From the NCBI RefSeq assembly GCF_045037415.1, contig NZ_CP173438.1: a DNA stretch of 64,000 nt. One strand, 5' to 3'. Within the stretch, counting starts at the first letter, position 1, and each line of letters starts with the position of its first letter. This DNA comes from Escherichia coli (GTDB lineage Bacteria; Pseudomonadota; Gammaproteobacteria; Enterobacterales; Enterobacteriaceae). This document shows positions 10,821-12,834 of the stretch, one piece after another. The notes beneath the pieces were generated by a model that did no database searches, was not told the DNA's origin, and was given only the letters and a program-made list of their open reading frames with translations. Made by a program: the position numbers and the translations under genes.

Positions 10821-12834
10821 TTATCTGAAAATTAAAGATGTATGTGATTTTGTCGGAGGAAGTCAACCTCCAAAATCTCAATTTATTTATGTATCTAAAC
10901 CTGGATATGTCAGGTTGATCCAGACGCGTGATTACAAAACGGATGCATTTCCCACGTATATACCAATATCGTCGACGAAGAAATTTTGTGATGAATTCGA
11001 TATTATGATTGGTAGGTATGGTCCCCCAATTTTTCAAATATGTCGCGGATTGAAAGGAGCATATAACGTTGCCTTGCTGAAGGTTAGGTAATGACTCCAA
11101 CTTATTGATAGTGTTTTATGTTCAGATAATGCCCGATGACTTTGTCATGCAGCTCCACCGATTTTGAGAACGACAGCGACTTCCGTCCCAGCCGTGCCAG
11201 GTGCTGCCTCAGATTCAGGTTATGCCGCTCAATTCGCTGCGTATATCGCTTGCTGATTACGTGCAGCTTTCCCTTCAGGCGGGATTCATACAGCGGCCAG
11301 CCATCCGTCATCCATATCACCACGTCAAAGGGTGACAGCAGGCTCATAAGACGCCCCAGCGTCGCCATCGTGCGTTCACCGAATACGTGCGCAACAACCG
11401 TCTTCCGGAGCCTGTCATACGCGTAAAACAGCCAGCGCTGGCGCGATTTAGCCCCGACATAGCCCCACTGTTCGTCCATTTCCGCGCAGACGATGACGTC
11501 ACTGCCCGGCTGTATGCGCGAGGTTACCGACTGCGGCCTGAGTTTTTTAAGTGACGTAAAATCGTGTTGAGGCCAACGCCCATAATGCGGGCTGTTGCCC
11601 GGCATCCAACGCCATTCATGGCCATATCAATGATTTTCTGGTGCGTACCGGGTTGAGAAGCGGTGTAAGTGAACTGCAGTTGCCATGTTTTACGGCAGTG
11701 AGAGCAGAGATAGCGCTGATGTCCGGCGGTGCTTTTGCCGTTACGCACCACCCCGTCAGTAGCTGAACAGGAGGGACAGCTGATAGAAACAGAAGCCACT
11801 GGAGCACCTCAAAAACACCATCATACACTAAATCAGTAAGTTGGCAGCATCACCGAAGGTTATACCTAAAGAAGGTGTAAGTCGTGATTTTTTATACTAT
11901 TTTTTGAAGCAAGACTCTGTTTTCCAATATGTTGATAAATTATCTGCCAGAACCGGAGGACAAACTGGAGTTGATCTAGTTTCTTTAAAAGAATATCCAG
12001 TCAGGATACCTGAAGAAATTGAATGTCAAGAAAAATTGGTGACTATTCTTAGTGTTATTGATAAAAAAATCGCCCTCAACAACCGCATCAACACGGAACT
12101 GGAAGCGATGGCGAAAACACTGTATGACTACTGGTTTGTACAGTTTGATTTCCCTGATGCCAACGGAAAACCGTATAAAACCTCCGGCGGGAAGATGGAG
12201 TATAACGCCACGCTGAAACGGGAAATTCCGGCAGGTTGGAATGACTCCATTCTTGGTAAGTTTATTGAGTTAGATCGTGGCGTTACTTATAGCAAAGAGG
12301 ATGTTCGAACTCAGGATGATAAAGATACGATAGGCATTCTTCGCGCTACAAATGTGACGGGAAATAATGTTGATATTGATGATTTAGTCTTCATTCCTTC
12401 TAGTAGAGTAAACGTTAATCAAATGCTAAATAAATTTGACATATTGATCGTGATGTCAAGTGGTAGTAAGGAGCATGTAGGGAAGAATGGCGTGTATTAT
12501 TTCGAAAAAAAAACATGCATTTGGCGCATTTTGTTCAAAAATTACACCCGTCAGAAAATACAGATATTTTATAAATACATTCCTGCAATCGAAATGGTTT
12601 AAGTCTTATATAAACAATCAGTGCTTGGGAACTAATATTAATAACCTGACCAATACGCATATCACTAATTGTGAAATCATATGCCCCACTCCTGATGTTG
12701 TGGCGTTATTCGAGAATAAAATGATGCCAATTTATAATAAACTGGCATCAAACACTCAAGAGAATAGTCATTTAATCCAACTCCGCGACTGGCTCCTCCC
12801 TCTACTTATGAACGGACAGGTCACGGTCAAATAA
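10810..12834 (+). pseudogene. hsdS: Type I R-M specificity subunit, interrupted by IS1 and by a frame break
   Basis: N-terminal segment 10810-11086, IS1, then 11854-12602 in frame 0 and 12487-12834 in frame 1; conserved C-terminal ..LRDWLLPLLMNGQVTV present. Confidence 0.8.
11087..11853 (-). mobile_element. insAB: IS1 insertion sequence (insA 11524-11799, insB 11102-11605)
   Basis: Terminal repeats ggtaatgactccaac... and ...ggcagcatcacc; InsA and InsB ORFs; flanked by direct repeat GAAGGTTA. Confidence 0.9.

Follow-up and report, generated by a model that had tools for sequence, protein, structure and literature searches.

The 64-kb stretch of DNA analysed here (the window) is part of an Escherichia coli ST131 chromosome. 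It contains ecpE, yagU and an island inserted at tRNA-Thr (thrW), as well as proAB, phoE, crl, frsA, pepD, dinB and the lateral-flagella cluster. The island, whose name GI-thrW is taken from PMC4659465, adjoins tRNA-Thr and proA and carries a type I restriction-modification (R-M) operon in the order hsdR-hsdM-hsdS. The intact 1248-nt reference hsdS was aligned to the window. The features of the locus are given below, where A9 stands for a run of nine adenines (and A8, A7 or A10 for the other lengths) and TRD for target-recognition domain.

6091..9189, plus strand: hsdR of EcoMIII, intact ORF; annotated in JJ1887 as type I restriction endonuclease subunit R, WP_000673070.1
9183..10820, plus strand: hsdM (M.EcoMIII), intact ORF, 545 aa; WP_000229741.1, also in EC958
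10810..11086, plus strand: hsdS 5' fragment, reference nt 1-277, codons 1-92; 100% match to the reference
11087..11854, minus strand: IS1, complete, 768 bp; the reference alignment splits here at nt 277/270
11799-11524, minus strand: insA, ORF within the hsdS IS1
11605-11102, minus strand: insB, ORF within the hsdS IS1
11855..12834, plus strand: hsdS 3' fragment, reference nt 270-1248; 980 aligned columns, 0 mismatches, 1 gap
12505..12513, plus strand: A9 run, A8 in the functional allele; Glu307-Lys308-Lys309 (GAA AAA AAA), in TRD2
12514..12602, plus strand: frameshifted 29-codon tail, TCIWRILFKNYTRQKIQIFYKYIPAIEMV; premature stop at 12600-12602
12514..12834, plus strand: out-of-frame HsdS residues 310-415, comprising the rest of TRD2 with the FGAFC motif and the C-terminal conserved region
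14011..14086, minus strand: tRNA-Thr (CGU), the thrW attachment site and boundary of the GI-thrW island with the R-M system

Upstream of hsdR (~1900-5800), the annotation of the identical JJ1887 sequence places two further features on the island: a type IV toxin-antitoxin pair, AbiEi/AbiEii, and two integrase genes that have decayed and contain internal stops.

Sequence comparison revealed 100% identity to strain JJ1887 over positions 1-11086 of the window. The reference proteins for the locus, HsdM (WP_000229741.1) and HsdS (WP_000671528.1), are also encoded by EC958. Because the operon, HsdM and HsdS match those of JJ1887 and EC958, the locus is identified by its sequence as EcoMIII, an already characterised ST131 system. 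EcoMIII corresponds to EC958_0424-0426, the GI-thrW type I R-M system of ST131, with the site RTACN4GTG (Forde et al. 2015, PMC4659465), an assignment made by gene knockout and SMRT sequencing (PMC4659465). The window shares with EC958, which carries the A8 allele of hsdS, the operon order, the GI-thrW position and identical HsdR and HsdM, and every base of hsdS is the same except for the IS1 insertion and one extra A. Unlike EC958, where methylation reaches more than 99% of the EcoMIII sites (PMC4659465), the window has an hsdS pseudogene, and its system is predicted to be inactive.

The IS1 element, which was absent from the account of the gene given in a preliminary description of this DNA, splits hsdS at about codon 92/93, within TRD1. 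Read-through from the 5' fragment into the element stops at 11091, leaving a 93-aa ORF (10810-11091). The attributes of an IS1 are all present: a length of 768 bp, the termini GGTAATGAC... and ...GCATCACC, and insA and insB with the A6C frameshift motif (TTAAAAAAC, minus strand, 11550-11542). The target duplication of 8 bp, GAAGGTTA, is found at 11079-11086 and 11855-11862. Compared with IS1 insertional inactivation as it is known, the 768-bp size, the expected ends and the 8-bp direct duplication in AT-rich DNA all agree, and nothing unusual was observed. This IS1/hsdS junction was found in 0 RefSeq complete E. coli genomes, and the insertion site is thus private among them. The motif TTAAAAAAC, which is the programmed -1 frameshift site of insA/insB, lies ~1 kb from the A-run of hsdS; the A-run of IS1 is bona fide functional, whereas the neighbouring one in hsdS is non-functional.

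The sole gap in the alignment of the hsdS 3' fragment is an extra A, the reference gene having A8 at nt 920-927. A run of 9-10 A at about 12505-12514 had been noted in the preliminary description; the run exists, but it contains exactly nine residues (12505-12513), position 12514 being a C, and its context is TTTCG-AAAAAAAAA-CATGC. The two out-of-frame hsdS segments described there were likewise recovered. Thus, the ORF at 11841-12602 (...VYYFEKKTCIWRIL..., ending in EMV and a stop) overlaps across the A-run with an ORF in another frame at 12487-12834, which starts with MACIISKKKHAFGAFCSK and reads ...KKKHAFGAFCSK... to NGQVTVK and a stop. The suggestion that the loss of one A would restore the full conserved protein proved exact: shortening the run in silico to A8 gave ...YYFEKKHAFGAFCSK... 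through ...NGQVTVK, a 415-aa HsdS identical to WP_000671528.1 of JJ1887 and EC958. The A9 frameshift costs HsdS its last 106 residues. The products specific to the window (the 93-aa N-terminal fragment and the 253-aa and 115-aa ORFs) were not found in a collection of ~15 billion proteins.

The A8-restored 415-aa protein contains two PF01420 (Methylase_S) stretches (E 1.8e-15), and two target-recognition domains with type I HsdS architecture were seen in it: residues 5-179 align to 1yf2, and residues 213-366 to TRD1 of EcoKI HsdS (2y7c_A, E 1e-24). According to this alignment, the A-run sits in the core of TRD2 and not in the inter-domain spacer, codons 307-309 (EKK) being aligned to non-conserved EcoKI HsdS residues directly before the conserved FGAFC motif. 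Given that the EKK codons are non-conserved and the GC content of hsdS is 37%, AAA lysine codons that fell together by chance in AT-rich coding sequence account for the run, which is no programmed contingency tract. Although A9 is the longest homopolymer in the window, followed by an A8 at 54225, such a run alone is not beyond chance: one A9 run occurs in the window versus a mean of 1.72 in dinucleotide shuffles, 70 out of 100 of which contained at least one.

The homology between TRD2 of EcoMIII (window ~12447-12908 of the restored gene) and TRD1 of EcoKI covers residues 5-159 of 2y7c_A, a domain that reads the AAC half-site; the homology is clear. Forde et al. described an S subunit with a single detectable TRD and no homology to characterised systems (PMC4659465).

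The length of the tract in other isolates was determined with exact-length queries of 78-81 nt for A7, A8, A9 and A10 against the RefSeq complete E. coli genomes. Among the 538 genomes carrying the segment, A8 was exact in 536, while A9, A10 and A7 were exact in 0. One genome, TUM13881, combines A7 with a second deletion (A5>A4) 30 bp further downstream and with a SNP close by, a pattern that is an error signature; its gene carries a frameshift annotation. The second non-A8 genome was exact to none of A7, A9 and A10, and probably carries a SNP or a second indel. A8 is essentially fixed across isolates, and the comparison of tract length between isolates, put forward in the preliminary description as a check for a phase-variable switch, thus went against it.

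An exact-protein look-up in the ~15 billion proteins placed the A8 product on at least 1000 contigs, the A7 product on 83, the A9 product on 4 and the A10 product on 2. Seven A9 loci were retrieved, and the three longest of them contained further homopolymer indels within 10-21 kb: L007 also had T6>T7, A6>A7 and T7>T8, L008 had C7>C8, and L006 had four small deletions. Two A7 contigs (L014 and L005) were likewise error-laden. The A9 contigs L009-L012 (2-11 kb) showed the tract change only, as did the A7 contig L013, clean over 7 kb. To judge from these sequences, most long variant contigs resemble the outcome of base-calling errors at homopolymers, and a few could be real; some true slippage variants probably circulate, given that L013 is clean over its 7 kb. 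Published work agrees with this picture: in E. coli, the indel rate climbs exponentially with homopolymer length (PMC8510543), and when the 454 and PacBio assemblies of EC958 were compared, the majority of the differences were indels at homopolymers (PMC4134206).

In general, the data point with high probability to an EcoMIII hsdS that is dead through two independent lesions and to an A-run that is no contingency tract. One lesion is the insertion of the complete IS1 after codon 92, in TRD1, and the other the change from A8 to A9 in the Glu-Lys-Lys run of TRD2, which ends the reading frame 29 codons on and drops the C-terminal part of the protein. Whichever the origin of the extra A, hsdS is non-functional owing to IS1. 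Type I enzymes need HsdS for methylation as well as for cleavage. Since HsdS is disrupted, the isolate is predicted to be r-m- for RTACN4GTG, despite its intact hsdR and hsdM.

The preliminary description had suggested a possible phase-variable switch, with a sequencing error as an equal alternative. In a programmed switch, the run would be a contingency tract toggling EcoMIII at high frequency and producing epigenetic heterogeneity (a phasevarion). Against such a switch, mismatch repair is proficient in E. coli, where the known cases of phase variation depend on invertases and Dam methylation, not simple repeats. The hsdS ORF does contain a mononucleotide run, its 9 nt reach the threshold of a screen for candidate phase-variable hsd genes (a run of ≥9 in the ORF; PMC7383803), and A7, A9 and A10 forms occur in public assemblies. 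As in the phase-variable hsdS genes of Mannheimia haemolytica (G[n]) and Salmonella India (G[12]) (Atack et al. 2020, PMC7383803), the run sets the frame from within the ORF, and in its A9 state it attains the 9-nt cut-off. However, the in-frame, working allele of EcoMIII is A8, below that cut-off, and with 536 of 538 complete genomes at this length the ON and OFF forms are not both common. The rare length variants mostly accompany other homopolymer errors, and the methylation of >99% of sites in EC958 (PMC4659465), which carries A8, is indirect evidence against a switch. Unlike the genes compared (PMC7383803), EcoMIII has poly-A lysine codons and not a long poly-G tract, and its run falls on a non-conserved EKK in the TRD2 core, not between domains as in truncation-type hsdS switches. 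In the window, moreover, IS1 makes hsdS unrescuable by slippage: because it splits the gene in TRD1, no change in the tract could turn the system on. The switch is thus very improbable. A milder version, in which A8 would be a low-rate mutational hotspot for repeated, sometimes reversible loss of EcoMIII beside recurrent IS1 hits, is also improbable, if less so; were it true, hotspot loss of the restriction barrier would be recurrently selected, for instance during plasmid acquisition, and the A8 run would give an E. coli R-M system a contingency site, though a weak and evolving one.

Two further readings would keep some product of the frameshifted gene active. Bacterial transcription can slip on A/T runs of ~9 or longer (Thermus dnaX, IS elements, endosymbiont poly(A) tracts), and RNA polymerase slippage on A9, or ribosomal frameshifting, could in principle yield some full-length HsdS. 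With IS1 lying 1.4 kb upstream, however, no transcript encodes a complete HsdS, and because the functional A8 allele, present in hundreds of genomes, is in frame, no recoding is needed; such recoding at the locus is extremely unlikely and was rejected. The other reading is a truncation-type specificity switch, in which a half-size HsdS would dimerise and read a new palindromic site. In other type I systems, truncated HsdS proteins that keep TRD1 and the central conserved region can show activity. Variable truncated HsdS forms from G-tract hsdS genes were reported by Atack et al. (PMC7383803) and provide a precedent. The break at residue 309, however, falls inside TRD2 (213-366 by the EcoKI alignment) and not at a domain boundary, and TRD1, too, is interrupted (by IS1, at residue 92), so that this switch was rejected as well and is extremely unlikely. 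The preferred reading, a specificity gene inactivated by IS1 and by a frameshift, leaves the origin of the extra A to be considered.

The window and JJ1887 show three point differences in ~63 kb: the extra A of hsdS, a SNP at 14128, and G6 versus G5 at 21008 (pepD). JJ1887 has a private A at the position corresponding to 14128, and at pepD 21008-21013 it has G5, its pepD being annotated as frameshifted, versus G6 in the window and other ST131 genomes. Since the other ST131 genomes agree with the window at both positions, the differences at 14128 and 21008 are private to JJ1887, and they represent either reference-side homopolymer errors or private mutations. A generally error-prone assembly of the window was rejected, two of its three point differences being private to JJ1887. 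The extra A is the only private point change of the window versus the ST131 consensus in ~63 kb.

As the longest homopolymer in the region, the A-run is the likeliest site for a slip of one base, which could be due to DNA polymerase in the cell or to the sequencing chemistry or base-caller. The odds between cell and sequencer are roughly even, with a slight lean to mutation. That the ninth A results from genuine replication slippage fixed in the isolate, either as a neutral hit after IS1 or as a first hit before a then neutral IS1, has close to an even chance. The rest of the assembly is clean, and A9 appears with no other discrepancy in four short public contigs, some of which resemble short-read metagenome assemblies; the exponential rise of the indel rate with run length (PMC8510543) points the same way, as does the finding of EcoMIII hsdS genes broken otherwise elsewhere (strains 22726 and 18044 carry IS1 at a second site, and many truncated or partial forms exist). 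On the other hand, the window has 0 private SNPs over 63 kb, which makes it unlikely a priori that one run of 8 nt should have acquired a private neutral indel, and none of the 56 RefSeq complete genomes with the motA IS1 insertion described below has A9. That the ninth A is instead a sequencing or assembly artefact, the isolate being truly A8 and IS1 its sole true lesion, is somewhat short of an even chance. ST131 assemblies are documented as differing chiefly at homopolymers, as in the 454 and PacBio versions of EC958 (PMC4134206), and the difference seen here is a single base confined to a homopolymer. The only private point difference of the window falls in its longest homopolymer, the same run is miscalled alongside other homopolymer errors in L005, L006, L007, L008 and L014, and A9 occurs in 0 RefSeq complete genomes. 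Against an artefact, the window has no second discrepancy of this kind in ~63 kb: its 15 other long runs, including the A8 at 54225, are all equal to the consensus, whereas the error-prone assemblies inspected had 2-6 homopolymer errors per 10-21 kb. The usual public miscall, in addition, is a deletion to A7 (83 contigs) and not an insertion (4 contigs).

For annotation, which is the practical point, EcoMIII should be entered as inactive in this isolate (hsdS being a pseudogene with IS1 and a frameshift), and the hsdS A-run should be kept out of lists of phase-variable loci. A repeat screen with a cut-off of 9 flags EcoMIII hsdS only when the gene is broken or miscalled, the in-frame functional allele being A8, which calls for caution in automated phasevarion surveys. 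The finding itself is of little weight. The R-M system is a known one, and its specificity gene is an ordinary pseudogene.

Other disruptions of hsdS were also observed. A second IS1 site, ~140 bp 3' of the A-run and with a 9-bp duplication, was present in strain 22726 (L002, NZ_CM190138.1, 3454-4221) and also in NZ_AP022326.1. The 90%-identity HsdS cluster contains many N- and C-terminal partial forms, which end at residues 231, 271, 277 and 340 or start at residues 25, 122 and 145, together with a 385-aa form with a foreign C-terminus after residue 372. EcoMIII hsdS may thus be recurrently disrupted in ST131, although draft contig breaks could also give partial forms. Repeated disruption across ST131 assemblies might merit a population-genomic look, which goes beyond what the window alone establishes.

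A second IS1 of the window (27281-28037) is 757 bp long; compared with the hsdS copy, it lacks 11 bp internally (positions 398-408 of the full copy) and differs by 2 mismatches. It is flanked by a 9-bp target duplication, TATTTTTTG, and lies at the 5' end of the lateral-flagellar motA (lafT), a junction that is the same in 56 RefSeq complete E. coli genomes. An IS1397 element (IS3 family; 32560-33991, with orfA at 32602-33132 and orfB at 33237-33959) is located between lafA and fliD, and its flanks resemble a REP-type palindrome. Its junction was found among the RefSeq complete genomes in NZ_OZ040716.1 in one piece and in E302 in two pieces. The IS insertions were also tried as a means of tracing relatives, with the motA IS1 in 56 genomes and the IS1397 site in 1-2; the two distributions are not nested, and therefore no ancestor with A9 was obtained. 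The lack of nesting follows from NZ_OZ040716.1, which is without the motA IS1 and has an intact hsdS, and it suggests that IS1397 inserted recurrently and site-specifically at this position.
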